55,826 bases of DNA from Anaerolineales bacterium (GCA_036803025.1 DAIRVC010000001.1:1-55826); one strand, 5' to 3'. Counted from the stretch's first letter, positions 1 to 50,826 are shown. Program-made: numbers and translations. Notes: generated from the letters alone by a model not told the origin.

Positions 1-457
1 CGCCCTGCGGCAGATCGCGCAGGAGTACGCCGGCGATGTCCACATCGTGTACCCCGTGCACCTGAATCCCAACGTCCGCCAGCCGGCCCACGAGCAGCTG
101 GCGGGCCTGCCAAACGTGACCCTTACCGATCCGCTCGACTACCTTCCGATGGTCCACCTGATGAAGCGCGCCACGTTAGTCCTGACCGACTCGGGCGGTC
201 TGCAGGAGGAGGCGCCTGCGCTGGGAACGCCGGTGCTGGTGCTGCGCCGCGTGACGGAGCGCCCGGAGGCGATCGAGGCCGGCACTGCCCGTCTGGTGGG
301 CACTGATCCAGCGCGCATCCTAGCCGAGACCCGCCGTCTTCTGGATGATCCGGCTGCGCATGCGGCCATGGCCCGGGCGGTCAATCCGTACGGCGACGGC
401 CGCGCCGCAGAGCGGATCGTCGAGGCCCTCCTGCAACAGCCGCGCCGCGAGCCGTAG
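1..457 (+). CDS. wecB: UDP-N-acetylglucosamine 2-epimerase, C-terminal part (5' end outside window)
   Basis: The frame is open from the window edge. [23 protein letters not shown] and [13 protein letters not shown] motifs are typical of non-hydrolysing UDP-GlcNAc 2-epimerases. Confidence 0.85.
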
Positions 458-22654: not shown

Positions 22655-22684
22655 CGGCTGCGCGTTTCCACGTGGGGGGTCAGC

Positions 22685-23542
22685 GTGAGTGAGCCAGGAT
22701 CCTCTCAGGGGCGATCGGGGTTGCGCGGTTGGGCGAGGGACCACGCTCTGCAGGTCTTCTTCGGCCTGGCGCTGCTGATCACCTGGACGATCGAGGCGCC
22801 GTTGATCGCGGCCGAATACGGGTGGATCAAGCGGCCGGTGCCGATGGCGCTGCACTATCTGGGGGCTTACGGCCCGATGCTGGCGGCGATCGTCACCACC
22901 GCACTCGGCCAGGGCGCCGCCGGATTGAAGGAGCTGCTCAGCCGGGTCACGCGCTGGCGTGTCGGCTGGGGCTGGATTGCCGCCGCCCTGTTGTCTCCGG
23001 CACTGCTGTTCGCTGTGGGCATCCTTGCAGCCCGGTTGGTGAGCGGTGATTGGCCCTCGCTGCGTCAGCTCGGCCAGGTCAACTACCTGCCGAATCTCGG
23101 CCTGGGCGCGTGGCTGCTCTGGTTTCTGACCTTCGGTCTGGGTGAGGAGACCGGCTGGCGCGGATTCGCGCTGCCGCGCCTCCAACGCACGCGTTCGGCC
23201 GGGTCGTCCACGCTGTTCCTTGGTCTGTTCTGGATCGTCTGGCACCTGCCGGCCTTCTTCTATCTGGACACGTATCAGGCGCTGGGCCTGTGGATGCTGC
23301 CCGGCTTTGCTTTCTCGGTGCTGTGTGGTGCGGTCGTCTACACCTGGCTGTACAACAGCACCGGCGGCAGCATCCTGATGGCCGCGCTGTGGCACGCCTC
23401 GTTCAACTACTTCAGCGCCTCGGACGCCGGCCAGGGTGTGGTGCAAATCGTGATGAGCGCCGGCGTAATCGCGGCCGGGTTGCTGATCCCGCGCATCCTC
23501 GGCCCGGAGAACTTCTCGCGAATCCCGCGCCAGCGTCTGTGA
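22685..23542 (+). CDS. CPBP-family intramembrane glutamic endopeptidase (CAAX protease-like)
   Basis: It is a polytopic membrane protein with GEETGWRGFALPRLQ, a WH motif and HASFN. Confidence 0.8.
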   Translation: MSEPGSSQGRSGLRGWARDHALQVFFGLALLITWTIEAPLIAAEYGWIKRPVPMALHYLGAYGPMLAAIVTTALGQGAAGLKELLSRVTRWRVGWGWIAAALLSPALLFAVGILAARLVSGDWPSLRQLGQVNYLPNLGLGAWLLWFLTFGLGEETGWRGFALPRLQRTRSAGSSTLFLGLFWIVWHLPAFFYLDTYQALGLWMLPGFAFSVLCGAVVYTWLYNSTGGSILMAALWHASFNYFSASDAGQGVVQIVMSAGVIAAGLLIPRILGPENFSRIPRQRL

Positions 23543-23576
23543 TGGCTGAGGGCGCCAGGGAGAGCGAAAGGCGGGG

Positions 23577-24248
23577 ATGAAGGAGGGAGATCGCGGCCTG
23601 GGACGGAGCGGATGGCTGTGGGCGAGTTGGGTGGCGGCCAACGCGCTGGGTGAGCTGGTCGGCCTCGGGCTGACCGGGGCCATCGGTGCCTTGATCTTGT
23701 CTCGGCAATCGACGCTGGGGGACTCACGCGCCCTGTTCGAGTTGCTGCTGGCCGTGGTCAGCGGCGCGTGCGTCGAAGGCGTGGCGGTTGGCTTGGCTCA
23801 GTGGACAGTGCTGCGGCGAGTCCTTACGGGGATCGCGCGTCGGACCTGGATCCTGGCTACAGCTGTCGGCGCGGCGGTCGCCTGGGCGCTGGGGATGCTC
23901 CCCAGCACAATGATGGACACGGGCGGGGAGGCAAGCGCGCCGGGACCGGAGCCGAGCGCGGCGACGATCCTGGTCATGACCATCGGGCTTGGGATCGTCG
24001 GCGGAGCGATCCTGGCCGGCCCGCAGTGGCTGATCTTGCGCAGGCACCTAGCGGGCGCGGGCTGGTGGGTCCTGTTCAATGCCGCCGCCTGGGCGGCCGG
24101 GATGCCGATCGCGTTCGCGGCGGTGAGTGCGGTCATCGACGGGCGCGGGATCGCCATCGCCGCCGGCTTGCTGCTGGCGACGGGCGCAGTCGTAGGGGCG
24201 ATCCACGGGCTGGGACTGGTGTGGTTGGTGCGAGAGCGGGCCGTGTGA
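23577..24248 (+). CDS. Hypothetical polytopic membrane protein with internal duplication
   Basis: About 6 hydrophobic helices are present. The motif G.AQW.VLRR.L / GPQWLILRRHL occurs twice. No family was recognised. Confidence 0.4.
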   Translation: MKEGDRGLGRSGWLWASWVAANALGELVGLGLTGAIGALILSRQSTLGDSRALFELLLAVVSGACVEGVAVGLAQWTVLRRVLTGIARRTWILATAVGAAVAWALGMLPSTMMDTGGEASAPGPEPSAATILVMTIGLGIVGGAILAGPQWLILRRHLAGAGWWVLFNAAAWAAGMPIAFAAVSAVIDGRGIAIAAGLLLATGAVVGAIHGLGLVWLVRERAV

Positions 24249-29535: not shown

Positions 29536-31923
29536 CTAGGCGGGATCCGGCGCGGCGAGATGGGCGACGAGATACGCACCCGCCCCGGCCAGGAGTGCCG
29601 CCGTCAATCCGGCGTCGAGAGCCAGCGTCGCCGCCAACACGCCGCCCACCCCGCTGGAGGCGCCGTTAACCCCCCAAGCCCACGGCAATAGGGAAGGTGC
29701 GCGGGCTTCCACTTTGCGCAGGCCGGCGGCAAACGGCACACCCATCAGGAGCCCGGCGGGGAAGACGGCCGCCGAGGCGAGCAGCAGTCTGGCGGCCAGG
29801 GACCAGCCCAGACCAAGCTCGATCAGACCCGGCAGGGCCAGCGCGGTCAGGCAGAGCGTCAGCGTCAACGCAGCCAAGGCCGGACGCAGACGCAGGCGAG
29901 GCGCCAGCACTTGACTTCCGATCCCGGAGGCGAGCAGCAGAACCGAGAGCACGACCCCGGCCGTCAGGGTAGGGCGGTCGAGAAGCAATGTCAGGCGTTG
30001 GATGAGGGGGACCTCCACCAGCAGATAGCCCGCGCCCAACGCGCTGAAGTACACGCCCAGCCGGGCCCACCCGGGTGCGAGGTTGGACACGGATCGACGG
30101 CCGTCGGAGGGCGGGATGCGCCTGAGCAGCCACAGCGGGATGATCACGAGCGGGAGGGAGATGGCCAGCATCAGGCCCAGCAGAAGCATCAGGACCAGGT
30201 AGCCGCTGCCGCCGAACGGCTGCCAGGTCCGGCCGAGGCCTGCCAGCACCGCCGGGGTCTGTCGCCAACGGAAGAAATGGAAGAAGAAGGGCCGATCGTC
30301 CGTTGCGGGTGCAAGGTTGAATTCGTAGCCGGCGACTGTCGAGGACGGATCGGTCAGCAGCGAGGCGGCCAGTGCGTGGTAGCGATCTTCGGGCAGGCGA
30401 TTGAAGCGATTGACCTCGTCCTCGGTCAGGCCGGGGAAGACCATGGGGTCGTAGGCGTTCTGCTCCATGAAGTTGCGCGTGACGGCGATCTCCTCCGGCT
30501 GCCAGGCGCGCAGTGCAACCAGGATCGTGGCGGTGCGCATGCTGCGAAAGGCGATCAGATGCTCGGCCGGGCGCTCGATGCCGGCGCGGTCCAGCGCGGC
30601 CAGGATGGTCGTCAGCGCGCGAATCGACTCGCTGGGCGGGGTCTGAAGCCAGCGTGTAAGGACCAATACACCATCCGGGGCGAGGCGGTCCAGCGCCTGC
30701 TCGATCGCTTCGACGGTCAGCGTGAAGTCCTCCGCCAGGCTGAATGCGCCGGAGCTGACCGGGTGATACGGATCACTCAAGCAAAACTGAACGACATCAA
30801 AGGCGGCGCCGCTCAGTTGAAGCGCCCCGCGGCTCGAGCGGGGAAGGACCTCGACCTGCGGCTGCATGATCAATTCGCGTGTGTAGCGCCCATACCGCCC
30901 GCGCAGTAGTTCGTCGACCAGCGGTTCGTCGGTCGGCAGGCTCACGTGGGCTGCGCCAGCGCCGAGGGCCATGAGGGCATCCAGTCCGGCGCCGGGATCG
31001 AGCAGCAGCGTGCGCGCACCGGGTCTGAGGCGGTAGACCAGCGCGGCGGGAAGGCGGCCGGCCAGGTCGATGATTAGCGGATCGCTGGGGAACGCGGCCG
31101 TAAGCGGAATCGGCCCGTCGCCGTCGAGGAAGAGGGCTGCCTGTACGGGCAAGGTACTGGGGGCCAGGAGACTGAGCCCAGGCAGAACGTGGATGCCCGG
31201 GCCTTCGACGACGTCCAGGCGTGCTGAGGCGCTCCAATCCGAGATGGTGAGCTGAGCCCCCTGGGCCAGGCGCGCCGCGCTGAGCGGCTTGTAAGGCGAC
31301 AGGCGCAGGCTCAGCCATGACGGCGAGGCGGCCATCGCCACGAGGCACAGCACCGCCGCGGTGCCGGCGGCCAGTGCGCTCGAACGCCGCGCGGGGAAGC
31401 AACTTGAGCCCAGGAACGCGGCCGCGGCCGAGGCCAGGACCACTCCCTCGGGGGGCAGGCTGCTCAGCAGGATCAGGGCGCCGGCGCATCCCAGTGCCGC
31501 GCCGATCAGGTTGGCGGCGTAGACGCGGTGCAGAGCTCCCCCGGCCGTCGTCAGGCCGATGGCGACGATCCAACCGACCATGACGAAGGGCACACCGGCG
31601 GCCAGGAAGTAGACGGCCAGTATCACCACCTGCGTCCCATCCCAGGCCAGATTGTAGGAGTCGAACGGCAGCCAGTTGATGACGGCGTAGGCGAGCAGGA
31701 TGGCCGCGCCCAGCGCCGCCGACAAGACAGCCGGCGACGCATGGCGGCGGCGAACGGTGACCAGGAGTCCGCTGGCGGCACTGGCCAGGACTGCCAGGCT
31801 GACGACGACGAAGGCGAAGTGGTGGAACTGCTGGATGGCGAAGAGGCGTGTCAGCGTGATCTCGAAGGCCAATCCCGCGGCAGAGACGACAGCCACTCCC
31901 AGAATGGACCGAGGTCGGATCAC
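29536..31923 (-). CDS. Polytopic membrane protein with central spermidine-synthase-like (SAM-MTase fold) domain
   Basis: About 7 TM helices (GLAFEITLTRLF...) are followed by a soluble domain with LLLDPGAGLD and FDVVQFCLSDPY, then about 7 more TM helices. GTG 31923 is chosen because the longer ORF overlaps moaA. Confidence 0.5.
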   Translation of the reverse strand: MIRPRSILGVAVVSAAGLAFEITLTRLFAIQQFHHFAFVVVSLAVLASAASGLLVTVRRRHASPAVLSAALGAAILLAYAVINWLPFDSYNLAWDGTQVVILAVYFLAAGVPFVMVGWIVAIGLTTAGGALHRVYAANLIGAALGCAGALILLSSLPPEGVVLASAAAAFLGSSCFPARRSSALAAGTAAVLCLVAMAASPSWLSLRLSPYKPLSAARLAQGAQLTISDWSASARLDVVEGPGIHVLPGLSLLAPSTLPVQAALFLDGDGPIPLTAAFPSDPLIIDLAGRLPAALVYRLRPGARTLLLDPGAGLDALMALGAGAAHVSLPTDEPLVDELLRGRYGRYTRELIMQPQVEVLPRSSRGALQLSGAAFDVVQFCLSDPYHPVSSGAFSLAEDFTLTVEAIEQALDRLAPDGVLVLTRWLQTPPSESIRALTTILAALDRAGIERPAEHLIAFRSMRTATILVALRAWQPEEIAVTRNFMEQNAYDPMVFPGLTEDEVNRFNRLPEDRYHALAASLLTDPSSTVAGYEFNLAPATDDRPFFFHFFRWRQTPAVLAGLGRTWQPFGGSGYLVLMLLLGLMLAISLPLVIIPLWLLRRIPPSDGRRSVSNLAPGWARLGVYFSALGAGYLLVEVPLIQRLTLLLDRPTLTAGVVLSVLLLASGIGSQVLAPRLRLRPALAALTLTLCLTALALPGLIELGLGWSLAARLLLASAAVFPAGLLMGVPFAAGLRKVEARAPSLLPWAWGVNGASSGVGGVLAATLALDAGLTAALLAGAGAYLVAHLAAPDPA

Positions 31924-31981
31924 GGGCAATCCATCAGATTGGCTCAGCAGCCCGCCGTGCGACGGCCGGGCGGCCCGAATG

Positions 31982-32992
31982 TCAGCCGCCGATCTCGCAC
32001 ATGTGCAGGTCGTTCGCCAGCCAGCCGCGGTCGAGCCTGTGCCCCTCGGGCTTGGCGGCGACGGCCTGCAGGAGAAGAGGTTCGAGCGGCAGCCCGGAGT
32101 GCAGCGCCTCGCGAATCGAGAAGTCCACGCCGGACAGCAGACACGGCCGCAGACGGCCATCAGATGTCAGGCGCAGGCGATTGCAGGCGTGGCAGAAGCG
32201 CTCGCCGAGCGGCGCGATGAATCCGACCGTACCCTTAGCGCCGCGCAACCGGTAGCTGCGCGCCGGTCCGCCGCCCGGGGGAGCTTCTGACGATTCGAGA
32301 GCCAGGCTCGCCATGCGGCGGCGCATCTCATCGACCGGCAGGAAGCGGTCGCCCGCAGCCGGATAATCGGCGCCCCAGTCGCCCTGATTGCCGATCGGCA
32401 TCAATTCAATGAAGCGAACATGCCAGGGGTGCTCGACCGTCGTCAGCGCCAGATCGACCAGTTCGTCGTCGTTCAGGCCGCGCACGACGACGACATTCAG
32501 CTTGAGCGGCGTCAGCCCGGCAGTCTCGGCTGCAGCCAGCCCGTCCAGAACGCGCCTCAGGTCGCCGCCGCGTGTGATCTTGCGAAAGCGCTCGGGCTGA
32601 AGGCTGTCCAGGCTGACGTTGACGCGCCGCAGCCCGGCGCGCGCCAGTTCCTGCGCCATGCCGGCCAGGCGCTGGCCGTTGGTCGTCAGGCTGACCTCCT
32701 CCACGCCGTCGATGCCGGCGATGGACTCGATCAAGCCGGTCAGGCCCGGGCGCAGCGTCGGCTCGCCGCCCGTCAGGCGGACTCGGCGGACGCCCAGGCG
32801 CGCCGCAGCCCGCGCGACGCGCAGGATCTCCTCGTCCGTCAACGGCTCAACGGCGGTCGGCCTGCGCGGGCCGGGTGTGCAGTAGACGCAGCGCAGGTCG
32901 CAGCGAGCGGTGACGGACACACGCAGGTAGTCGATGACGCGGCCGTAGCCGTCGCGCAGGTCAGCTGGTTGCGATCGTGGGTCGTTGATCAT
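31982..32992 (-). CDS. moaA: GTP 3',8-cyclase (molybdenum cofactor biosynthesis protein A)
   Basis: It has the radical-SAM motif RVSVTARCDLRCVYC, LTGGEPTLR and the C-terminal Cys cluster CHACNRLRLTSDGRLRPCL. Confidence 0.92.
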   Translation of the reverse strand: MINDPRSQPADLRDGYGRVIDYLRVSVTARCDLRCVYCTPGPRRPTAVEPLTDEEILRVARAAARLGVRRVRLTGGEPTLRPGLTGLIESIAGIDGVEEVSLTTNGQRLAGMAQELARAGLRRVNVSLDSLQPERFRKITRGGDLRRVLDGLAAAETAGLTPLKLNVVVVRGLNDDELVDLALTTVEHPWHVRFIELMPIGNQGDWGADYPAAGDRFLPVDEMRRRMASLALESSEAPPGGGPARSYRLRGAKGTVGFIAPLGERFCHACNRLRLTSDGRLRPCLLSGVDFSIREALHSGLPLEPLLLQAVAAKPEGHRLDRGWLANDLHMCEIGG

Positions 32993-33097: not shown

Positions 33098-35197
33098 TCA
33101 CGCGGAGCGCAGCAGCCGGGCTGAATTGGCCATGACGAACAGGTCGGGAATCGATTGTCCGGCCGCCGCCGCCACCGGTGGGAGCAGGCCGAAGGCCGCC
33201 AGACCGATGCCGAGCAGGTTATAGACAACGCCTAACGCCAGGTTCTGCTGGATGACTCGGAACGTGCGCCGCCCCAGCCGGACGGCTTCGGGCACGGCGC
33301 GCCAATCGTCGCTCATCAAGGCCACGTCGGCCGCCTCCAGCGCGGCGTCGGTACCGGCCACGCCCATGGCGATGCCGACATCGGCCTGCGCCAGCGCCGG
33401 GGCGTCGTTGACGCCGTCACCCAGCATCAGGACGGTCCGGCCGCTGGCCTGCAGCTCGCGCACCACGGCGATCTTGTCGGCCGGGAGCATCTCAGCCCGG
33501 TAGTCGACCTGCAGCGTCTCGGCCAGGCTGCGGGCGGTGCTCTCGGTATCGCCGGTCAGCAGGAGCATGTGCTCGATGCCCAGCCCCCGAAGCTCCTCCA
33601 GGGACCGACGCACCTCTGGGCGCAGCGTGTCGGCGACGGCCAGCGCGCCGATGGTCTGATGACCGTGAGCTACGTAGAAGACGGTCTTGCCGGCCGCCTC
33701 CCAGGCGCGTATCTGACCGTCGGGGTCAGGCAGGGGCAGGCCGCGCTCGGCCAGCAGGCGTCGGCTGCCGACGATCAGGTCCATGCCCCTCCAGACCGTC
33801 CGCACGCCCAGGCCCGGCAGGGCTTCAAATACCTGCTCGTCGCCTGTGTCGTGGGCCGGCCCGGGCGCGGCGCGGCGCACGGCCGCGGCGATGGGATGCT
33901 CGGAGTGCCGTTCGGCCGCGGCGGCCAACTCCAGGATCTGCTCGGACGAGCGACCGTCGAACGCCAGTGCGTCGGTCACGCTCGGTATGCCCAGCGTCAG
34001 CGTCCCGGTCTTGTCCATCACGAGCGTGTCGACGCGGGCCAGGAGCTCGAGGTAGCGGCCGCCCTTGATCAGGATGCCGGCGCGCGCCGCCCGGCCGACA
34101 GCGGCAATCACAGCCGTCGGGGTAGCCAGGGCGACCACACAGGCGCAGGCAACCAACAGCACGGCGACGGCGGCACTTGGATCGCGCCCGATGGCGTAGG
34201 TCACCGCCGCGGCCGAGGCGACGATCGGGATGTACCAGGCCGTAAAGCGGTCAGCCAGTCGCTGGACGGGCGCCTTGTTGGCTTCGGCCTGCTCGACCAG
34301 GCGAACGATGCGGCCGAGCGTCGTGTCGGCGCCGACGCGCGTGACGCGGACCTGGAGGGCGCCGCCGTGGACGATCGTTCCGGCGAAGACCGACTGACCT
34401 GGACCGCGTTCGACGGGGAGGCTCTCGCCGGTGATCGGGGATTGGTCGACCGCAGCCCGGCCGGAGGCGACCAGGCCGTCGGCCGGGACGCGTTCACCCG
34501 GCCGGACCACAAGCAGCTCGCCGGCGCGCAATTCGCCCGCCGGTCGATCGACTTGACCGTCTTCCGTGAGCACGTGAGCGGCGGGCGGGGCCAGGTCCAT
34601 CAGCGTTCGGATCGCCTGTCGAGAGCGCTCCGTTGTGACGCCCTCCAGGTAGTCGGCGACGCGCATGAAGAACACGATCACCACGGCCGCCAATGTCTCG
34701 CCCGCCGCCAGCGCGCCGACCACGCCCAAGGTCATCAGCGCGTGTGCGGTCACCTGGCGATGCCAGAGCGCCCGTGCCACGTTGACGAAAATCGGGGCGC
34801 CGCCCAGGGCGACTGCGGCCAGCGGAACCCAGGCCGGCAGGCCACCCAACGCGGTCTCGAGAAGGCCAAGCCGCTCGCCGAGCACCTCGACCGTAATCAG
34901 CAGGGTAACCAGCCCGGCAAACAGCCAGCCGGCACGGCCGAGGGCCTTGGCCGGGTCGACGCGCGCTGGTGTGGCCGGGGACTGGACGCCGTAGCCGGAG
35001 CGCAGCACGGCGGCGCGGATCTCGTCGGGTGTGACTAGGCCGGGGTCGTAGCGCACTTCCAACCGCTCAGCGGCGAGCAGTGCGTGCGCCTCGGTGATTC
35101 CCGGCAGTTGGCGGACGGCGGACTCGACGTGCATCACGCACTCGGCGCAATCCATGCCGGTCACGCCCAACCTCAGGTCCTGCGCCGTGCCGGACAT
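33098..35197 (-). CDS. Heavy-metal translocating P1B-type ATPase
   Basis: It has the N-terminal HMA motif GMDCAECV, plus TGES, DKTGTLT, SEHPIA and GDGVNDAPAL. The TM motif reads CAC instead of CPC. The ATG overlaps the arsR-like stop (ATGA). Confidence 0.9.
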   Translation of the reverse strand: MSGTAQDLRLGVTGMDCAECVMHVESAVRQLPGITEAHALLAAERLEVRYDPGLVTPDEIRAAVLRSGYGVQSPATPARVDPAKALGRAGWLFAGLVTLLITVEVLGERLGLLETALGGLPAWVPLAAVALGGAPIFVNVARALWHRQVTAHALMTLGVVGALAAGETLAAVVIVFFMRVADYLEGVTTERSRQAIRTLMDLAPPAAHVLTEDGQVDRPAGELRAGELLVVRPGERVPADGLVASGRAAVDQSPITGESLPVERGPGQSVFAGTIVHGGALQVRVTRVGADTTLGRIVRLVEQAEANKAPVQRLADRFTAWYIPIVASAAAVTYAIGRDPSAAVAVLLVACACVVALATPTAVIAAVGRAARAGILIKGGRYLELLARVDTLVMDKTGTLTLGIPSVTDALAFDGRSSEQILELAAAAERHSEHPIAAAVRRAAPGPAHDTGDEQVFEALPGLGVRTVWRGMDLIVGSRRLLAERGLPLPDPDGQIRAWEAAGKTVFYVAHGHQTIGALAVADTLRPEVRRSLEELRGLGIEHMLLLTGDTESTARSLAETLQVDYRAEMLPADKIAVVRELQASGRTVLMLGDGVNDAPALAQADVGIAMGVAGTDAALEAADVALMSDDWRAVPEAVRLGRRTFRVIQQNLALGVVYNLLGIGLAAFGLLPPVAAAAGQSIPDLFVMANSARLLRSA

Positions 35198-35553
35198 CAG
35201 CGCCTCGCCTGTGATGAGCGCAACTCGGCCGGTTGATAGCGCGGGCAGGCATCGATCTGCGGGCCGGTGCGCCGCAGGAGGCGGTCGATCTGCTCCAGGA
35301 GGGTGCGCACATCCGGATCGGCCAGGGCGTAGTACACAAAACGACCCTGCGGACGGGCGCTGACCAGGCCGCAATCGCGCAGGCAGGCCAGGTGGTTGGA
35401 GACGTTCGGCTGTGTCAGGCCGGTCTCTTCGACCAGGTCGGAGACGCAGGCCGGCCCGCGTCGCAGCGCCTGCAGGATGGCCAGGCGGGAGGGCTCGGCC
35501 AGGCCTTGAAGGAGATGGGCGCGGGTCTCCGGGCGAATCGGGCTGCGGGTCAT
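35197..35553 (-). CDS. ArsR/SmtB-family metalloregulator
   Basis: The winged HTH reads LAEPSRLAILQALRRGPACVSDLVEETGLTQPNVSNHLACLRDCGLV. It is translationally coupled to the ATPase. Confidence 0.88.
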   Translation of the reverse strand: MTRSPIRPETRAHLLQGLAEPSRLAILQALRRGPACVSDLVEETGLTQPNVSNHLACLRDCGLVSARPQGRFVYYALADPDVRTLLEQIDRLLRRTGPQIDACPRYQPAELRSSQARR

Positions 35554-35560
35554 GCCCCGG

Positions 35561-35569
35561 ATTATATCA
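35561..35569 (-). promoter_or_regulatory. Extended -10 element TGATATAAT 7 nt upstream of the arsR-like ATG (probable leaderless transcript)
   Basis: The reverse complement of ATTATATCA at 35561-35569 is the element, and the ATG is at 35553-35551. Confidence 0.5.
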
Positions 35570-42960: not shown

Positions 42961-42989
42961 TTGACTCGCGCCGCAGCTGGTGCGATACT
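42961..42989 (+). promoter_or_regulatory. Sigma70-type promoter (TTGACT-17 nt-GATACT) driving the riboswitch leader
   Basis: Hexamers and the 17-nt spacer were read directly, ~20 nt upstream of the riboswitch P1. Confidence 0.55.
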
Positions 42990-43009
42990 CCGCTTACAAC
43001 CGAACCGAT

Positions 43010-43158
43010 AGGGCCGAGGTGGCCGTTTGCCCGGATGCGACGGCCACCCAGGGGAAGCCGGTCACTGCCGCACAACGCGGCCGAAGTCCGGCGCTGTCCC
43101 GCAACTGTAGGGGCGTGGTCAGGTGACCCGCCCGAGCCAGGATACCCGCCTCGGCCCG
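43010..43158 (+). promoter_or_regulatory. Cobalamin (B12) riboswitch
   Basis: P1 is GGCCGAGG (43012-19) / CCTCGGCC (43149-56) and P2 is GGTGGCCG/CGGCCACC. The conserved core reads AGGGGAAGCCGGT ... GAAGTCCGG ... GCTGTCCCGCAACTGTA, and the B12 box reads GAGCCAGGATACCCGCC. Confidence 0.85.
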
Positions 43159-43210
43159 CGACGCGAACACCCTTCGCGGAAAGGAGGTGGCGCATGTCCT
43201 ATCCAACGTG

Positions 43211-43253
43211 GGCCTTCCCCTGACCGTCTCAAGGGAAGGCCTTCCCTTTTCCC
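43211..43253 (+). terminator. Intrinsic terminator (riboswitch expression platform/attenuator)
   Basis: GGCCTTCCC-loop-GGGAAGGCC is followed by TTCCCTTTTCCC. It lies between the aptamer and the first gene of the operon. Confidence 0.65.
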
Positions 43254-43336
43254 GCCAGGCGGGAGGCGCGGCTCCAGGATCCACATCCCTACAACCGCCC
43301 CGGGCGCGAGCCTCCGCCCGGGCGAAGGAGAACGAC

Positions 43337-44377
43337 GTGAAGGTCAAATCCATGCTGGCAGCGCTGGCGGCTGCGGCGCTGATGCTCCCGGGCGCGGCGC
43401 TGGCGCAGTACGACGCACACATCGAACGTGCCGTCGAGTCGTTGCACGATTGGCAGCAAGAGGACGGCGGTTTCACCAACGGATTCGCCGAGGGCAGCAA
43501 CCTCGGGGCCACGGCCGACGCCGTGCTGGCATTGGTCGCGGCAGGCGAGGATCCGGCCGCCTGGTCGCTGAACGGGCACACCCCGATCGATGCGCTGGCG
43601 GCTCAGTTGGGGAACCTGAGCGGGGCGGGCGAGGCGGCCAAGGTGGCGATGGCGGTGACCGCGGCCGGCCTCGATCCGCGCACCTTCGGCCAGACTGACT
43701 TGATCGCACAGGTCGTCAATGGATTCGATCCGGGCAACGGCTTCTTCGGCGGCGGGCCTTTCGACAGCGCCCTGGCCTTGATCGCGCTGGCCGCCGCGGA
43801 CGAGCCGCTGCCGGCTGGCGCGGTCGACGGCCTGCTGGCGGCGCGCCTGGACGACGGCTCATTCTCGTTCACGGGCGACCGGACGCCGGGCGCCGGCGAC
43901 AGCAACACCACCGCGCTGGCGATCCAGGCGCTCGTCGCTTCCGGCGCGGGGGACCAGATCGGCCCGTCAGTCGAAAACTTGCGCCTGACCCAGAACGAGG
44001 ACGGCGGCTGGACCTACCAGAAGCCCAGCCCGTTTGGCGAGGAGACCGACGCCAACTCGACCGCCCTGGCCATTCAGGCGCTGCTGGCTGCCGGCGAAGA
44101 TCTGGCCGCTTGGGGAGATCCGCTGGGAACGCTGCTCGGCCTGCAAGGTCCGAGCGGGGCCTTCTACTTTAATCAAGCCACGGGAACCGACAACGTGCTC
44201 GCCACGCTGCAGGCTATCCCGGCCCTGGCCGGCCTGACCTACGCGGAGGTCGCGGCGCGCGATGGCGATCTCGCCCCTGCCCCGCGGACGACCCCGACAG
44301 GGACGGCGCTGGTCGTCCTGGGAGTCCTGGCTGTCGTGCTGGCTGCCAGCCTGATCATGGCCCGGCGGCGAGGATGA
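43337..44377 (+). CDS. Secreted, C-terminally membrane-anchored alpha/alpha-toroid protein (prenyltransferase/squalene-oxidase-type repeats)
   Basis: GTG 43337 lies 6 nt after GAAGGAG. The signal peptide is MLAALAAAALMLPGAALA. QEDGGF / LDDGSF / NEDGGW / GPSGAF repeats alternate with NSTALAIQAL helices, and the C-terminal helix is LVVLGVLAVVLAASLIM followed by RRRG. Confidence 0.7.
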   Translation: MKVKSMLAALAAAALMLPGAALAQYDAHIERAVESLHDWQQEDGGFTNGFAEGSNLGATADAVLALVAAGEDPAAWSLNGHTPIDALAAQLGNLSGAGEAAKVAMAVTAAGLDPRTFGQTDLIAQVVNGFDPGNGFFGGGPFDSALALIALAAADEPLPAGAVDGLLAARLDDGSFSFTGDRTPGAGDSNTTALAIQALVASGAGDQIGPSVENLRLTQNEDGGWTYQKPSPFGEETDANSTALAIQALLAAGEDLAAWGDPLGTLLGLQGPSGAFYFNQATGTDNVLATLQAIPALAGLTYAEVAARDGDLAPAPRTTPTGTALVVLGVLAVVLAASLIMARRRG

Positions 44378-45447
44378 CTGTGGGCATGCAAGCCGGGAAC
44401 GGAGCGGACCAAGGGCACCCGGTCCGCTCCGCCCTCTCGCCCTCGCGACTGCACCCGGCGGCCTGGATGGCCTGGACGGCCAGCGCCGCGGCGGTCGGGC
44501 TGCTGGTTCGCAATCCCTGGTATCTGGCCATCCTGGGGACGCTGGCGATCGCGTTGCACGCGCGGCTGACGGCGAAGCGGCTGAACTGGCCGCGCCTGCG
44601 CCTCTACCTGAGCCTGGTGGCTTTTCCAGGTCTCCTCAACCTGTTCTTGAGCCGCGTCGGCGACACGGTTCTCCTGCATCTGCCGCTGCGCTGGATCGGC
44701 GGGCCGTATACGCTGGAAGGGCTCCTGTTCGGGCTGTCGGCCGGCGTGCAGATCGCCAGCCTGATGGCCGTCTTCTCCGTCTTCGGCGCGGCCGTCAAGC
44801 CGACCGACATCCTGCGGCGCATGCCGCGCGGGTTGTATCCGGTGGGATTGAGCGCGTCGATCGCGTTGACCGTCGCGCCGCAGGCCAGGCGCTCCTTCGC
44901 CGCGATTCAGGAGGCCCACCAGGTGCGCGGCCGTCAACCGCGCGGGCTGCGCGATCTGCCGGGCATCGTCACCCCGTTGGTCGTCCTCAGCCTGGAGGGG
45001 GCCATGGGACTGGCCGAGGGGATGGTGGCGCGAGGCTGGCAGGGGGACGGGCCGCCACGCGGGCGGGGTTGGCTGGCCGCCGCCGGCTGGCTGCTGCTCT
45101 CAGCCGCAGTGGTCGTCGTGTTGACTCTGCCAGCAGGAGGCCTGGCAGGCATCGGCCTGCTCCTGCTGGCGGTCGCGTTCCTGGCCGGTGGGCGGTCTCG
45201 ACGCCCGGCCGAAGGACGCTATCGCCCCGACGTCTGGCGGGGCGCAGATACCCTGCTGAGCGGCGTGGCGCTGGGCGTGTTGGCGGTCTGCATGTTCCTC
45301 GCCGCTGCTGCGCCGGCTGCCCTGGCGTACTACCCGTACCCGCGTGCCGCCTGGCCGGACTTCGCCGTTGGGGTGGCGCTGGCCGTATTGCTGTTGGGCT
45401 TGCCGCTCTGCTTGCCGGGCACACGAGGCGCGCATGCTGGCGGTTGA
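44374..45447 (+). CDS. ECF-transporter T component (CbiQ/EcfT family) with C-terminal extra TM region
   Basis: The CbiQ-like core includes ...QARRSFAAIQEAHQVRG... and LSLEGAMGLAEGMVARGW. About 110 additional residues with 3-4 hydrophobic helices follow. The ATGA overlaps the upstream stop. Confidence 0.7.
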   Translation: MTVGMQAGNGADQGHPVRSALSPSRLHPAAWMAWTASAAAVGLLVRNPWYLAILGTLAIALHARLTAKRLNWPRLRLYLSLVAFPGLLNLFLSRVGDTVLLHLPLRWIGGPYTLEGLLFGLSAGVQIASLMAVFSVFGAAVKPTDILRRMPRGLYPVGLSASIALTVAPQARRSFAAIQEAHQVRGRQPRGLRDLPGIVTPLVVLSLEGAMGLAEGMVARGWQGDGPPRGRGWLAAAGWLLLSAAVVVVLTLPAGGLAGIGLLLLAVAFLAGGRSRRPAEGRYRPDVWRGADTLLSGVALGVLAVCMFLAAAAPAALAYYPYPRAAWPDFAVGVALAVLLLGLPLCLPGTRGAHAGG

Positions 45448-47056
45448 GGGCCTGACCTACACCTACCCGCAGCGGCAGCGGCCGGCGCTGCAGGATATAG
45501 ACCTGCACGTCCAGGCGGGCGAAGCGGTCCTGGTTGCCGGCCGATCGGGATCCGGGAAATCGACACTGCTGCGCGCCTGCAACGGGTTGGTGCCGCGCTT
45601 CTACGGCGGCCGCTTTGCAGGCCGGGTTGTGGTCGGCGGGCTGGATACCCGCAGCGCCGCGCCGGCGCTTCTGGCCGGCAAAGCCGGCCTGGTCTTCCAG
45701 GAGCCGCAGGGCCGATTCCTGACCTCGACCGTCGCTGATGAGATTGCCTTCGGCCTGGAGATCGCCGGCCTCGCGGCGGCAACCATCCGCCAGCGCGTGG
45801 GCGATATCTTGGAGCGCCTGGAGTTGACGGGCCTCGTCGATCGGCCGCTCGACCGGCTGTCCGGTGGTGAGCAGCAGCGCGTGGCGATTGCAGCCGCTCT
45901 GGCGCGACAGCCGCAGCTGCTTGTCCTGGATGAACCGACTTCGCAACTCGACGGGCAATCGGCCGAAGCCGTCTTGGCCTGGGTGACCGAGTTGCGGCAC
46001 AGGCTGGGCCTGACCGCGCTGATCGCCGAGCATCGGCTAGGCCGGCTTCTTGCGGCCGTGGACCGTGTATTCTATCTCCCGGAGACCACGGGCGCCGGAA
46101 TGGCCGGCCCCCCCGCCGCCATCCTCGAGCGCATGCCCTTTGGGCCCCCGCTGTCCCGGCTATCGCGGGCGTGGGGACTCCCGGCGCCGATCAGCCCGGA
46201 GTCGCTGGAGACCTTGCGCCGGAAAGTGCTGGGTCTTGCGCCGGGCGCGGGACGATCGCTCCCGGCAGGCCAGGCCCGGCTGTCTGCGAGCGGGCTTTCG
46301 TTCGCCTACAATGGCATCCCGGCGCTTGTGGAGGTCGGACTGGAGGTGCGGCCGGGCGAGGTGCTGGCCGTGCTGGGCCGGAACGGCTCGGGCAAGTCGA
46401 CGCTGCTGCGCGTGCTGATGGGCCTGCTGCGAGCCTCGCACGGCGAGGTCAGGCTGGATGGGGAACGACTGGACGAGACGCCGGTCCCGCTGCGTGCCCG
46501 CCGGATCGGATATGTTCCGCAGTGGCCCTCGGCGCTGCTCTTCGCCGATAGCCTGCTGGAGGAGCTGTGGATCACCCTGCGGAATCACGGGCTGGAGGAG
46601 GCGCCGCCCCTCCCGCCGGAAACGCTGCTGCGAGACCTGGGGCTGACGCAAGTGGCCAGTCACTATCCGCGTGACCTCTCTGCCGGAGAGCAGCAGCGGG
46701 CGGCCATTGCCGCAGTGCTGGTGGCACGCCCGGGCGTCGTCCTGCTGGACGAACCAACCCTGGGGATCGACCCGCTGGCACAGCAGGAGATCGGGCACCT
46801 GCTGGATCGGTGGCGGGGCGAGGGCATGGCCATCGTCCTGGCGACGCACGACGTCGAGTTCGCCGCGGCGTACTCGGATCGGGCGATGATCTTGGATCGG
46901 GGGAGCGTGGTGGCGGTCGGGCCGACAGCGGAGACGCTCTTTGGGCAGCCGATGCTACGGACCGCCCTGCAGCAACTGACCGGGAGGGCTCGACCGGCCA
47001 GCCCGGATGAACTGCTCAACGATCGGGGTCCAGGAGAGGCACATGCCGAGCATTGA
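45434..47056 (+). CDS. Fused double ABC ATPase (EcfA1-EcfA2 / CbiO-like)
   Basis: Both sets of motifs are present: GRSGSGKST / LSGGEQQRVAIA / LLVLDEPT and GRNGSGKST / LSAGEQQRAAIA / VVLLDEPT. The 14-nt overlap is with the T gene. Confidence 0.88.
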   Translation: MLAVEGLTYTYPQRQRPALQDIDLHVQAGEAVLVAGRSGSGKSTLLRACNGLVPRFYGGRFAGRVVVGGLDTRSAAPALLAGKAGLVFQEPQGRFLTSTVADEIAFGLEIAGLAAATIRQRVGDILERLELTGLVDRPLDRLSGGEQQRVAIAAALARQPQLLVLDEPTSQLDGQSAEAVLAWVTELRHRLGLTALIAEHRLGRLLAAVDRVFYLPETTGAGMAGPPAAILERMPFGPPLSRLSRAWGLPAPISPESLETLRRKVLGLAPGAGRSLPAGQARLSASGLSFAYNGIPALVEVGLEVRPGEVLAVLGRNGSGKSTLLRVLMGLLRASHGEVRLDGERLDETPVPLRARRIGYVPQWPSALLFADSLLEELWITLRNHGLEEAPPLPPETLLRDLGLTQVASHYPRDLSAGEQQRAAIAAVLVARPGVVLLDEPTLGIDPLAQQEIGHLLDRWRGEGMAIVLATHDVEFAAAYSDRAMILDRGSVVAVGPTAETLFGQPMLRTALQQLTGRARPASPDELLNDRGPGEAHAEH

Positions 47057-47678
47057 ACAGGCGCGGGCCTGGTATGACCCGCGCGATCCGGTGCACGGTT
47101 TCGATCATGTCCTGCGGGTGCTGAGGCTGGCCGAGCGGCTCGGACGTGAGGAAGGTGCCGACCTGGAGATCCTGCGCGCCGCGGCCTTGTTGCACGATGC
47201 TGCGGGAGCCCACCCGGGCCAGGGTCAGGCGCGGGCTCAGCACGAGCAGCGCTCGGCCGAATTCGCCGGCGAGGTGCTGGCGCAGGAGGGCTGGCCGGCC
47301 GAGAGGATCGCCGCCGTGCAACACTGCGTGCGGGCTCATCGCTTCCGCGGTCACGACCGGCCGGAGACGGCCGAGGCGCGCGTGCTGTTTGATGCCGACA
47401 AGCTGGACGTGATGGGCGCGTTCGGCGCGGCGCGGACGATCGGCTACGCCGTGCAGGCCGGCCTGCCGGTCTACAGCGAGCCTTCAGCGCAGTTCCTGGA
47501 GACCGGCCGGGAAGCTCCCGGGGAGGAGCACAGCGCCTACCATGAGTACCTGTTCAAGCTGCGCCATGTGCGCGAACGCCTGCTGACCGAGGCGGCCCGC
47601 CGGCTGGGCGAACGCCGCCACGCGGCGTTGACGGCGTTCTTCGAGCAGCTGGCGGCCGAATCGCGGGCCGAAGCCTAG
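47043..47678 (+). CDS. HD-domain metal-dependent phosphohydrolase
   Basis: It contains HGFDHVLRVLRLA ... AALLHDA (H...HD) and FDADKLD. The ATG overlaps the ATPase gene end by 14 nt. Confidence 0.75.
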   Translation: MPSIEQARAWYDPRDPVHGFDHVLRVLRLAERLGREEGADLEILRAAALLHDAAGAHPGQGQARAQHEQRSAEFAGEVLAQEGWPAERIAAVQHCVRAHRFRGHDRPETAEARVLFDADKLDVMGAFGAARTIGYAVQAGLPVYSEPSAQFLETGREAPGEEHSAYHEYLFKLRHVRERLLTEAARRLGERRHAALTAFFEQLAAESRAEA

Positions 47679-47816: not shown

Positions 47817-48665
47817 ATGGAAAACGATCACAAACCGCAAATACTGCTGACCAATGATGATGGTATCCGCTCGCCCGGGTTGTGGGCGGCGGCCGAGGCG
47901 CTGGAACGCATCGGCTTCGTCACCGTCGCCGCGCCGCGCGAGCAATCCTCCGGTGCCGGCCGCGGCATGCCGCTCGGCTCGGACGGCCGCATCCGGCAGG
48001 AGCAGGTCGAGGTCGGCGGCAAGCGCTGGACCGTCTACGCGGTCGGCGGCTCGCCGGCCCAAGCGGTGCAGCACGGCATCCTGGAACTGATGCCGCGCAA
48101 GCCCGACCTGGTCGTCTCGGGGATCAACTACGGGGAGAACCTGGGCACGGGCGTGACGATCTCCGGGACGGTCGGGGCAGCGCTGGAAGGCGCCGCCGCC
48201 GGCGTGCCGGCGCTGGCGATCTCAGTCGAGACCGATCCGGCCCTTCACCTCACGCACTCGCCCGAGACCGACTTCTCCGGCGCAGCCCATTTCACCCGCC
48301 TTTTCGCTGAACTGCTGCTGCAGTTGGATCGCCCGGCCGATCTGGATGTGCTTAAAGTCGACGTGCCGGCCGAAGCGACGGCCGAGACTCCCTGGCGGGT
48401 GACGCGCCTATCGCGGGCGCGCTACTTCGTGCCGGTGAGACCTGTGCGCCAGCGGCTGGAGGACCGGGCCGGCGTCGGCTACAAGATCGACGTGGACGAT
48501 TCGGCCTTGGAGCCGGACTCGGACACCTACGCGCTGCGAGTGGACCGGGTGGTCGCGGTGACTCCGCTCAGCCTGGACTTGACCTCCCGCCTCAAGCTCG
48601 ATGCGATCGAGCGCTTGCTTCGAGAGGACCTACCTCAAGGTCGAGCGGTACAAGCGGCGCGCTAG
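47817..48665 (+). CDS. surE: 5'/3'-nucleotidase SurE
   Basis: It contains ILLTNDDGIRSPGL, SGINYGENLG and GTVGAALEG. Confidence 0.92.
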   Translation: MENDHKPQILLTNDDGIRSPGLWAAAEALERIGFVTVAAPREQSSGAGRGMPLGSDGRIRQEQVEVGGKRWTVYAVGGSPAQAVQHGILELMPRKPDLVVSGINYGENLGTGVTISGTVGAALEGAAAGVPALAISVETDPALHLTHSPETDFSGAAHFTRLFAELLLQLDRPADLDVLKVDVPAEATAETPWRVTRLSRARYFVPVRPVRQRLEDRAGVGYKIDVDDSALEPDSDTYALRVDRVVAVTPLSLDLTSRLKLDAIERLLREDLPQGRAVQAAR

Positions 48666-49584: not shown

Positions 49585-50826
49585 TCAGAGGGTCCAGACG
49601 GAGAGCGTCTCGATATGAAAAGTCTGTGGGAAGAGATCAAAGGGGGTGACGCTGTCCAGCCGGTAGCCCCCATCCGCCAGCTGGCGAGCATCGCGTGCCA
49701 GGGTCGCCGGATCGCAGGAGACATAGACCAGGCGGGGCGAGCGGCGCGCCAGGAGCGACTTGACCACGGTCGATCCCAATCCGGCGCGCGGCGGATCGAT
49801 AAGAACCGCATCCGGTCGCGCGTCGATGGCCGGGAGCGCCTCTTCCACCGAAGCCTCGAACAGACTGACCGCCTCGAATCGGCCGAGGTTGTGCTCGAAG
49901 TCGGCGCAGGCGCTGGCCGACTCCTCGACGGCGACCACCTGTGCGCCGGCGTCGGCCAGGTAGGCGCTGAACAGCCCGACACCGGCGTACAGGTCGAAGA
50001 CCGTCTGCCCGGGCGTGACAGTCAAAGAGGACAGGGCGCGGGCAGCCAGCTCGGCGGCCAGTGCGCTGTGGACCTGGAAGAAGGAGGCGGCCGAGACGCG
50101 GAAGAGGTGCGGCCCGACCTGCATGACGAGGTGGTCGGTGCCGGCCAGCACAACCGACCCCGTCGGCCACGACCAGACGACCGACGTAGGATGGTCGACC
50201 GCCAACTCGATATCGGGCTCGCGGTCGGCCTCGAACAGGATCAGGCACTCGTCGTCGGCCCCACAGCGCAGCACCACGCGCCGCAGCCCTGCGATCGGGG
50301 CGAGGTCGAGCCGGGGCCACAGGTCGGCCAGCGGCGGCACAGGCAGGTGGCACTCCTCGAGGGTGACCATACGCTGTGAGCCGGCCGCCTGGAGCGCCAG
50401 ACGCCCGCCGGCATCGACCGAGAACTGCATATGGTTGCGCGTGTTCCAGGGGGTCGGTGAGGCGACGGTCGCCTGAACGGGCGGGTCGACGAATCCGCCC
50501 AGTCGCCGCAGCTGGGCGGCGACGATCTCACGCTTGGCGGCCAACTGCGCCGTGTATGTCAAGTGCTGGTAGTGACACCCGCCGCAATGCATGAAGTGCC
50601 GGCAGCGGGCCGCGATCCGGTCGGGCGAGGATTCAAGGACCTCGACCAGGCGAGCGCGCGCCCAACGCTCATGCGCCTCGGTGACCTCAGCCAGGATGCG
50701 TTCGCCCGGCGCGGCGAAGGGGACGAAGACCATGCGCCCGTTCGCCTCGCGGCCGAAGGCTTCCCCGCCGTAGGCGGCGCCGCTCAGGGTGAGCTCCAGC
50801 CGTTCCACAGATGGCGTCCCTCTCAA
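49585..50826 (-). CDS. 23S rRNA (uracil-C5)-methyltransferase, RlmD/RumA family (TRAM + Fe-S + SAM MTase)
   Basis: It has a TRAM-like N-terminus, the Cys cluster CRHFMHCGGCHYQH, DLYAGVGLFS, DPPRAGL and VYVSCDPATLARD. The start is uncertain (TTG 50826 or GTG 50808). Confidence 0.85.
   Translation of the reverse strand: MRGTPSVERLELTLSGAAYGGEAFGREANGRMVFVPFAAPGERILAEVTEAHERWARARLVEVLESSPDRIAARCRHFMHCGGCHYQHLTYTAQLAAKREIVAAQLRRLGGFVDPPVQATVASPTPWNTRNHMQFSVDAGGRLALQAAGSQRMVTLEECHLPVPPLADLWPRLDLAPIAGLRRVVLRCGADDECLILFEADREPDIELAVDHPTSVVWSWPTGSVVLAGTDHLVMQVGPHLFRVSAASFFQVHSALAAELAARALSSLTVTPGQTVFDLYAGVGLFSAYLADAGAQVVAVEESASACADFEHNLGRFEAVSLFEASVEEALPAIDARPDAVLIDPPRAGLGSTVVKSLLARRSPRLVYVSCDPATLARDARQLADGGYRLDSVTPFDLFPQTFHIETLSVWTL

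Follow-up and report, generated by a model that had tools for sequence, protein, structure and literature searches.

Burroughs, Balaji, Iyer and Aravind described in 2007 bacterial transcobalamin-like SLBB proteins, which are secreted or anchored and often fused to α/α toroids (PMC1796856). These proteins are encoded with CbiO-like and CbiQ-like genes, and they were predicted to scavenge vitamin B12 or its precursors (PMC1796856). In the literature searched, we found no biochemical B12 test of these toroid/β-grasp-assisted energy-coupling factor (ECF) systems. Verplaetse et al. studied lsa1836-1840 of L. sakei, which encode an S component, a fused ATPase with both domains (AA), a T component, and a β-like and an α-like transcobalamin protein (bioRxiv 10.1101/864751). 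Deletion and complementation connected these five genes with heme uptake (bioRxiv 10.1101/864751). In L. delbrueckii, ECF-CbrT is the characterised ECF-type importer of vitamin B12 (PMC5997447). Here we describe a four-gene operon behind a cobalamin riboswitch in an Anaerolineales bacterium (GCA_036803025.1, DAIRVC010000001.1:1-55826). The whole stretch of 55,826 nucleotides (nt), hereafter the window, has a G+C content of 68%, and its closest relatives are Anaerolineales/Chloroflexota metagenome-assembled genomes (MAGs). A reading of the DNA by a model from the sequence alone (the sequence-only reading) had proposed four overlapping genes for a tethered toroid protein, EcfT, a fused EcfA-A and an HD hydrolase, and all four are confirmed. 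It had also noted the lack of an S component, and indeed profile and family searches reveal none, in the operon or elsewhere in the 55.8 kb window.

The window operon resembles the systems of Burroughs et al. in that a surface α/α toroid gene shares an operon with a CbiQ-like T component and CbiO-like ATPases. In contrast to these systems, it provides the toroid only. No SLBB/DUF4430 β-grasp domain is present in the gene 1 product, which ends in a linker and a transmembrane (TM) helix, and no such gene occurs in the operon beside it. The fused A-A′ ATPase, the T component and a separate extracellular α-like toroid are shared with the L. sakei system. However, the L. sakei unit has an S component (Lsa1836) and a β-like protein (Lsa1839), whereas the window lacks both and has an HD hydrolase and a cobalamin riboswitch instead. 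Operons of the SCO2321/SCO2322 type also contain a homologous toroid, an extended T component and a fused AA, in the order toroid, (β-like), T, AA. They differ from the window by a SCO2322-like secreted protein, a PF12822-like S component and other tail genes (DUF4916/NUDIX, or PF01902 and PF01497).

ECF-CbrT, like the window, relies on an ECF module of a T component and two ATPase domains, used there for the uptake of cobalamin and cobinamide, and its EcfT is the nearest to the window T component in the PDB. In contrast, ECF-CbrT belongs to group II: its module is shared, A and A′ are two proteins, CbrT serves as the S component, and an extracytoplasmic binder is missing. The window toroid shares with eukaryotic transcobalamin, intrinsic factor and haptocorrin the (α/α)6 fold, an extracellular location and a presumed B12-related function. 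The eukaryotic proteins have a fused β domain by which cobalamin is sandwiched, while the window toroid stays below the PF01122 threshold. The concept that transcobalamin-like binders and CbiQ/CbiO modules scavenge B12 is already published (PMC1796856; bioRxiv 10.1101/864751). What is new is the reduced toroid-T-AA-HD architecture behind a riboswitch, without β-like and S genes, conserved in a Chloroflexota lineage.

The window operon appears to be a reduced variant of an S-dependent system, because orthologous operons in other Chloroflexota and in Actinobacteria encode an S component and a small secreted protein. We consider it reasonably likely that the window encodes an ECF-type module for corrinoid uptake, repressed by B12 and served by an S subunit in trans. 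The S subunit, and the β-like gene as well, are probably encoded elsewhere in the genome. The reduced type, consisting of toroid, T, AA and HD, was counted over ~24 complete Chloroflexota loci, and the gene order toroid-T-AA-HD is kept in every one of them. Of the 24 genome loci scanned, 23 have an RF00174 match ahead of the orthologous toroid gene, as do L001-L003, L033 and L036. The four-gene unit is thus conserved behind a B12 riboswitch, a point that the sequence-only reading had named as a check. The same reading had seen in the missing S component the sign of a novel mechanism, with the binder feeding the T/A module directly. In that form the interpretation is not supported, since the orthologous operons encode a PF12822-like S component.

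Full-type loci are found in Chloroflexota (L026, L028, L036) and in actinobacterial-type contigs (L030, L031/L032, and L035 of Phycicoccus jejuensis). They contain homologous toroid, T and AA genes plus two further genes. Identity to the window toroid, T and AA is 39-59% in the Chloroflexota loci L026 and L028, and in the actinobacterial-type loci it is ~30% for T and 27-35% for the toroid. The first extra gene encodes a small secreted, anchored, Cys-rich β-like protein with a weak match to the NCBIfam model SCO2322_fam. The second encodes a protein with six TM helices, which matches the S-component profile PF12822 over its whole length, just below threshold in L031. Over 7,500 homologs of this S family were found; many have a Pfam record of PF12822, and the source annotation reads 'ECF transporter S component'. 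In sequence, the family resembles neither CbrT nor any other S component of solved structure. Upstream of the full operons, RF00174 is matched in five of the six loci (L026, L028, L030, L035, L036), and L031 gives a 29-bit subthreshold match. In addition, the operons of L036 and L038 include a BtuF-family PF01497 gene.

The window operon lacks two genes that the full system normally has, and we searched the whole window for them. Hidden Markov models built from the S-like and β-like proteins of the sister operons gave zero matches in the six-frame open reading frames (ORFs) of the window, and none of its multi-TM proteins matches an S family. Most of these proteins are other things, namely a histidine kinase, an Rce1-like protease, a P-type ATPase and a PMT_2 protein. 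No S gene is present within ~6 kb of the ~24 orthologous reduced operons.

Outside the reduced loci, S genes of the family occur away from T and AA. Scanning metagenomes with an S-like profile gave 80 loci. The gene order is fluid, and toroid-β-T-AA-S, toroid-β-S-T-AA and toroid-T-AA-β-S are all found. The S gene stands alone in L076, L080 and L090, and beside a BtuF-family PF01497 gene in L082 and L088. In L047 (3495-8779), an RF00174 match of 66 bits is followed by genes for a β-like protein, an S-like protein, CobS, a TIM-barrel protein, CobU and CobT. The L047 leader holds a near-copy of the switching block found in the window, and toroid, T and AA genes are all absent from this 9.8 kb metagenomic contig. 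Judged from its gene content, L047 reads as the complement of the window operon, and it gives the strongest link of the S family to cobamide salvage. The half with β-like and S genes appears separable from the toroid-T-AA half, because L047 carries the one without the other. Because this family includes S genes that are not linked to T-AA, in one case with a B12 riboswitch of their own, an S subunit acting in trans is the simpler reading. The cobS/cobU/cobT and BtuF-family genes of related operons likewise connect the system, as a prediction from gene neighbourhood, to cobamide salvage. The S-like genes of L037 and L038 were rejected as free-standing units, for they follow T-AA directly (L037) or a truncated upstream gene (L038).

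The leader of the window operon contains the elements of a riboswitch-controlled promoter (Table 1). The consensus-like promoter of the sequence-only reading is found as the single such site in the 700 nt scanned, where 0.1 would be expected by chance. Each of the 29 related leaders has a TTGACN-16..18-TATACT element ahead of the aptamer, 7-14 nt away in 28 of them and 26 nt away in one. We regard the match as beyond chance, since the element recurs in related leaders. The cobalamin riboswitch with its B12 box is borne out by a significant RF00174 covariance match to the full model (model positions 1-189, E 1.1e-10, gathering score 31.5), which takes in the B12-box region GAGCCAGGAUACCCGCC. 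Scores of the orthologous leaders range from 50 to 79 bits.

Directly behind the aptamer, the block CCTTCGCGGAAAGGAGGTGGCGC is near-invariant in all eight aligned leaders, and it was noted in the window and in the leaders of L002, L004, L006, L013, L020, L022, L026 and L047. Its segment GGAGGUGGCG is able to pair with the 3′ strand of the aptamer helix P1, and in the minimum-free-energy fold GGAGGUGGCG is paired with ACCCGCCUC. Although the block is Shine-Dalgarno-like in look, it probably serves as the switching helix in the expression platform, because of this pairing with the 3′ strand of P1. A leader peptide behind the block (43194, 9 codons) was rejected, as the ATG of the window is not conserved among leaders. 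Further downstream, the GC-rich hairpin GGCCUUCCC...GGGAAGGCC spans 43210-43241 and is followed by UUCCCUUUUCCC. All 28 related leaders examined have a GC-rich hairpin of the same kind followed by a T-rich tail; the stems vary by locus and the pairing is kept. Of the terminator proposed earlier, the hairpin therefore stands, while the tail is the weak part: a strict terminator scan called no terminator in the window leader, since the UUCCCUUUUCCC tail is too weak. Taken together, the elements suggest that the leader acts as an OFF switch by transcription termination.

The gene 1 product agrees with the predicted signal-peptide protein with a C-terminal anchor. A signal peptide (cleavage at about ALA/QY) is followed by an (α/α)6 toroid (residues ~27-307), a variable linker and a single TM helix (~321-345) with a basic tail. 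Translation from the start at 43337 yields a product that agrees with database protein P0001 in length (346 amino acids, aa) and in every residue (100% identity). The AlphaFold2 model has a predicted local distance difference test score (pLDDT) of 91. Foldseek places single-domain squalene-hopene-cyclase-like proteins and drimenyl diphosphate synthase at the top (E ~1e-7, TM-score 0.55-0.60), and transcobalamin/haptocorrin α domains (7qbg, 2bb5, 4kki) at a lower rank (E ~1e-4, TM-score 0.49-0.53). The likeness to transcobalamin drawn in the sequence-only reading stands as far as the model superposes on transcobalamin and haptocorrin, but terpene cyclases rank first.

The likeness of the toroid to cyclases is limited in sequence to QW-like repeats. 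Pfam SQHop_cyclase_N and SQHop_cyclase_C score 21.9 and 22.1 bits, below their cutoffs of 26.2 and 26.1. The invariant G-D188-S-N190-T-T of the toroid family aligns with S-D-V-D-D-T of drimenyl diphosphate synthase, and the central Asp becomes Asn. The position of the general-acid motif DxDD therefore reads D-S-N-T, and the toroid lacks the terpene-cyclase catalytic motif. PF00432 gives 22.7 bits, under its cutoff of 26.5; the toroid is secreted, and no gene for a protein prenyltransferase α subunit is found near gene 1. The gene 1 product is predicted to be a non-catalytic, surface-displayed toroid, because the Asp of DxDD is replaced, the cyclase likeness is confined to repeats and the Pfam scores remain below threshold. 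NCBIfam NF053823 (SCO2321_fam) matches it with 94.9 bits (E 4.6e-27; equivalog cutoff 300), which places it as a likely homolog of the SCO2321 family outside the equivalog. We collected 516 homologs of the toroid, and 47 residues are invariant across 50 aligned members (49-77% identity).

Genes 2 and 3 encode a genuine EcfT and a genuine ECF-type ATPase. The start at 44374 gives a gene 2 product of the same length as database protein P0121 (357 aa) and 100% identical to it. It matches PF02361 (CbiQ) with 33.4 bits against a cutoff of 25, and in the PDB its sequence comes closest to L. delbrueckii EcfT (5d3m_D/6fnp, E 9e-6). For its AlphaFold2 model (pLDDT 84), the Foldseek matches at E <0.1 are six EcfT chains only. 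Both coupling-helix Arg-Gly motifs are present; A181, R185, R220 and G221 do not vary, and G186 is almost invariant. Gene 3 starts at either 45344 or 45434, overlapping the end of gene 2, and contains two complete ABC domains (Pfam ABC_tran twice, E 9e-57). It scores 258.9 bits with TIGR01166 (cbiO; cutoff 211.8). ECF_ATPase_1 and ECF_ATPase_2 are its top NCBIfam matches, yet they remain under their equivalog cutoffs. The four genes overlap. Gene 4 matches Pfam HD with 64.3 bits, and its best PDB sequence matches are 2pq7, 3gw7 (YedJ) and 5dqv. In every complete reduced-type locus, the ATPase gene is followed by an HD homolog, which stands where sister operons have the S component.

Table 1. 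Coordinates of the leader elements, the four operon genes and the downstream neighbour in the window
Feature	Position	Strand	Basis or remark
Sigma-70-type promoter-like element	42961..42989	+	TTGACT-17 nt-GATACT, TG before the -10 hexamer
Cobalamin riboswitch aptamer, full length (RF00174)	43000..43167	+	53.9 bits
Conserved switching block CCTTCGCGGAAAGGAGGTGGCGC	43171..43193	+	Directly 3′ of the aptamer; alignment of leaders
Intrinsic-terminator-like hairpin GGCCUUCCC / GGGAAGGCC, tail UUCCCUUUUCCC	43210..43253	+	Folding, comparison of leaders
Gene 1, candidate surface corrinoid-binding accessory protein, 346 aa	43337..44377	+	GTG start, ribosome-binding site AAGGAG 6 nt upstream
Gene 2, EcfT (T component), 357 aa	44374..45447	+	Pfam CbiQ (PF02361), PDB match, Foldseek
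Gene 3, fused EcfA-EcfA′ ATPase, ~540 aa from M31 of the 45344 ORF	45434..47056	+	Pfam, NCBIfam
Gene 4, YedJ/YpgQ-like HD-domain phosphohydrolase, ~211 aa	47043..47678	+	Overlaps the end of gene 3
SurE-family gene	47817..48665	+	Pfam SurE 160 bits; ~140 nt after gene 4

On the basis of these features, we propose how a module with its S subunit in trans may work. When adenosylcobalamin is plentiful, it would bind the leader RNA, the terminator hairpin would form and transcription would stop, following the logic of the riboswitch family. When B12 is scarce, the operon would be transcribed. The catalytically inactive toroid on the outer face of the membrane may then capture or concentrate corrinoids, in the manner of a transcobalamin α domain. 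The products of genes 2 and 3, with the identities given above, would form the T-A-A′ motor. A PF12822-like S component, as encoded in the sister operons, would dock on T and carry the corrinoid across the membrane, and a small secreted β-like partner may also take part. The co-transcribed HD hydrolase could, speculatively, process cargo or nucleotides.

Several observations weigh against this proposal. The S gene has so far been seen in no genome carrying the reduced operon, as judged from the window and from ~6 kb around the ~24 operons, and the L047 contig is not tied to any such genome. The β-like partner is absent from the window operon, and transcobalamin needs one for high-affinity binding. 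In the sister operons, the likeness of the β-like protein to the DUF4430 motif pattern is our own reading, and its SLBB/DUF4430 identity is putative; Pfam at E up to 1 and a profile search of PDB sequences gave no DUF4430 or SLBB match. With terpene cyclases ranked above transcobalamin by Foldseek, the fold of the toroid model does not discriminate by itself. PF01122 (Cobalamin_bind) has no match on the window toroid at E up to 0.01, and it matches 7 of 50 toroid family members weakly (best E 0.0023), the L026 ortholog reaching 22.7 bits versus a gathering score of 25. Toroid relatives are part of many other surface architectures, for which no B12 link is known. Finally, the homologous L. sakei system is experimentally tied to heme, not to B12.

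The L. sakei result raises the idea that the same architecture moves a different cargo, either heme or another tetrapyrrole, as in Lsa1836-1840, or cobalt ions, as in CbiMNQO. B12 riboswitches control cobalt transporters such as CbiMNQO in many bacteria, and the T family itself bears the Pfam name CbiQ, 'cobalt transport protein'. We regard such a cargo as rather unlikely. A cobalamin riboswitch governs the system in two phyla, and the related operons are tied to cobS/cobU/cobT and to a BtuF-family protein. For heme, no related gene or regulator is located nearby; for cobalt, no CbiM or CbiN gene is present, and a metal ion needs no large toroid binder.

Another possibility concerns the family-specific C-terminal extension of gene 2, which comprises ~three TM helices. 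In S-independent transport, the tethered toroid would hand the corrinoid directly to the extended EcfT, and the three extra T helices, perhaps with the anchor helix of the toroid, would form the path across the membrane, so that no S component is needed. Such a module would be a hybrid of a binding-protein-dependent ABC importer and an ECF transporter, with the toroid delivering corrinoid to EcfT; we judge a hybrid of this kind to be improbable. This scheme would explain why no S gene is seen in the operon, the window or ~6 kb around the ~24 orthologous operons, while the operon is under clear purifying selection with its riboswitch kept, and it fits the conservation of the extra membrane region in T. 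However, the sister operons that encode an S component carry the extension too (T has 336-383 aa in L031, L035 and L036), so the extension is no replacement for S. Foldseek finds no S-fold match in its ~three helices, and S genes of the family do occur in trans. No ECF transporter is known to function without an S subunit (see PMC5997447), and S-independent transport accordingly seems unlikely to us.

The absence of two standard genes could also mean that the operon is a decaying remnant, which lost the S and β-like genes and with them transport. We consider this very improbable, as the four genes are intact and overlapping, 47 toroid residues are invariant across 50 homologs, and the reduced architecture is kept with promoter, riboswitch and terminator in ~24 different genomes. 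Least credible of all is that the toroid is an enzyme with envelope lipids as substrates, either a class II terpene cyclase or a prenyltransferase, and only incidentally linked to the transporter: its top Foldseek and Pfam likeness to squalene-hopene-cyclase-like toroids is confined to repeat motifs with scores below gathering thresholds, DxDD is replaced by the invariant D-S-N-T, and the protein is secreted, anchored outside the cell and always encoded first behind the B12 riboswitch, adjoining the ECF genes.

Little is known about how B12 enters Gram-positive-type and Chloroflexota bacteria, which abound in soils, sediments and bioreactors. Our analysis places the family under a cobalamin riboswitch in two phyla and links its S family to cobS/cobU/cobT, and a widespread Chloroflexota lineage retains only the toroid-T-AA half behind the riboswitch. 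If the two halves are encoded apart, as the preferred reading of an S subunit in trans supposes, the lineage offers a naturally occurring example of a dedicated ECF module served by an S subunit encoded in trans. Otherwise, it would provide the first example of an ECF transporter that lacks this subunit. In both cases, the toroid ectodomain, the β-like protein and the S protein are concrete candidates for cell-surface corrinoid capture.

The last operon gene varies by lineage and is mostly nucleotide-hydrolase-like. The reduced Chloroflexota type has the YedJ/YpgQ-like HD gene, Phycicoccus has a DUF4916/NUDIX gene (L035:8876-9415), and L036 (9828-11446), like L038, has a PF01902 PP-loop protein and a PF01497 binding protein, seemingly without a signal peptide. 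These hydrolase-like tail genes may point to intracellular processing of the cargo. A SurE gene follows the HD gene on the same strand in nearly all reduced-type loci, and its membership in the operon is uncertain. A gene for a TRAM/tRNA-U5-methyltransferase is a constant near neighbour of the reduced operon as well (49585-50826 in the window, and in relatives). In L090 (3643-5777), the orphan S-like gene lies directly after a TRAM/tRNA-U5-methyltransferase gene. This shared neighbour may be a coincidence.

The toroid family is very large, and a deep profile search gave 7,605 representatives at E up to 1e-3. Relatives from this search (P0361-P0510) have 2-4 tandem toroids, often with PKD, and one carries CWB2 cell-wall-binding repeats. 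No toroid-DUF4430 fusion is found among the 19 longer relatives run through Pfam. A sortase signal at the toroid C-terminus was rejected for the Chloroflexota family, which shows no conserved motif there and has a plain TM anchor. The actinobacterial L030 toroid carries an LASTG motif, which we read as a sortase signal.

Two membrane proteins of the window have no family assignment. One has 232 aa and six predicted TM helices (23550-24248, + strand), and its gene adjoins that of the Rce1-like CAAX protease (22655-23542). It was rejected as a hidden S component, for no support came from Pfam, NCBIfam or PDB. The other has 876 aa and ~11 predicted TM helices (29536-32166, - strand) without a Pfam or NCBIfam match, and its gene lies upstream of that of the heavy-metal P-type ATPase (33098-35566). 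Among the other contigs, L029 (JAAXVP010000509.1, 1.7 kb, labelled as a Thiobacillus sp. MAG) carries Chloroflexota-type toroid and T genes ~52% identical to those of the window; the Thiobacillus label is probably a binning error. The RNA elements at L015:43-114, L036:16572-16830 and L077:4619-4845 are a group II intron domain, a glmS ribozyme and a T-box leader, respectively, and are unrelated to the operon.

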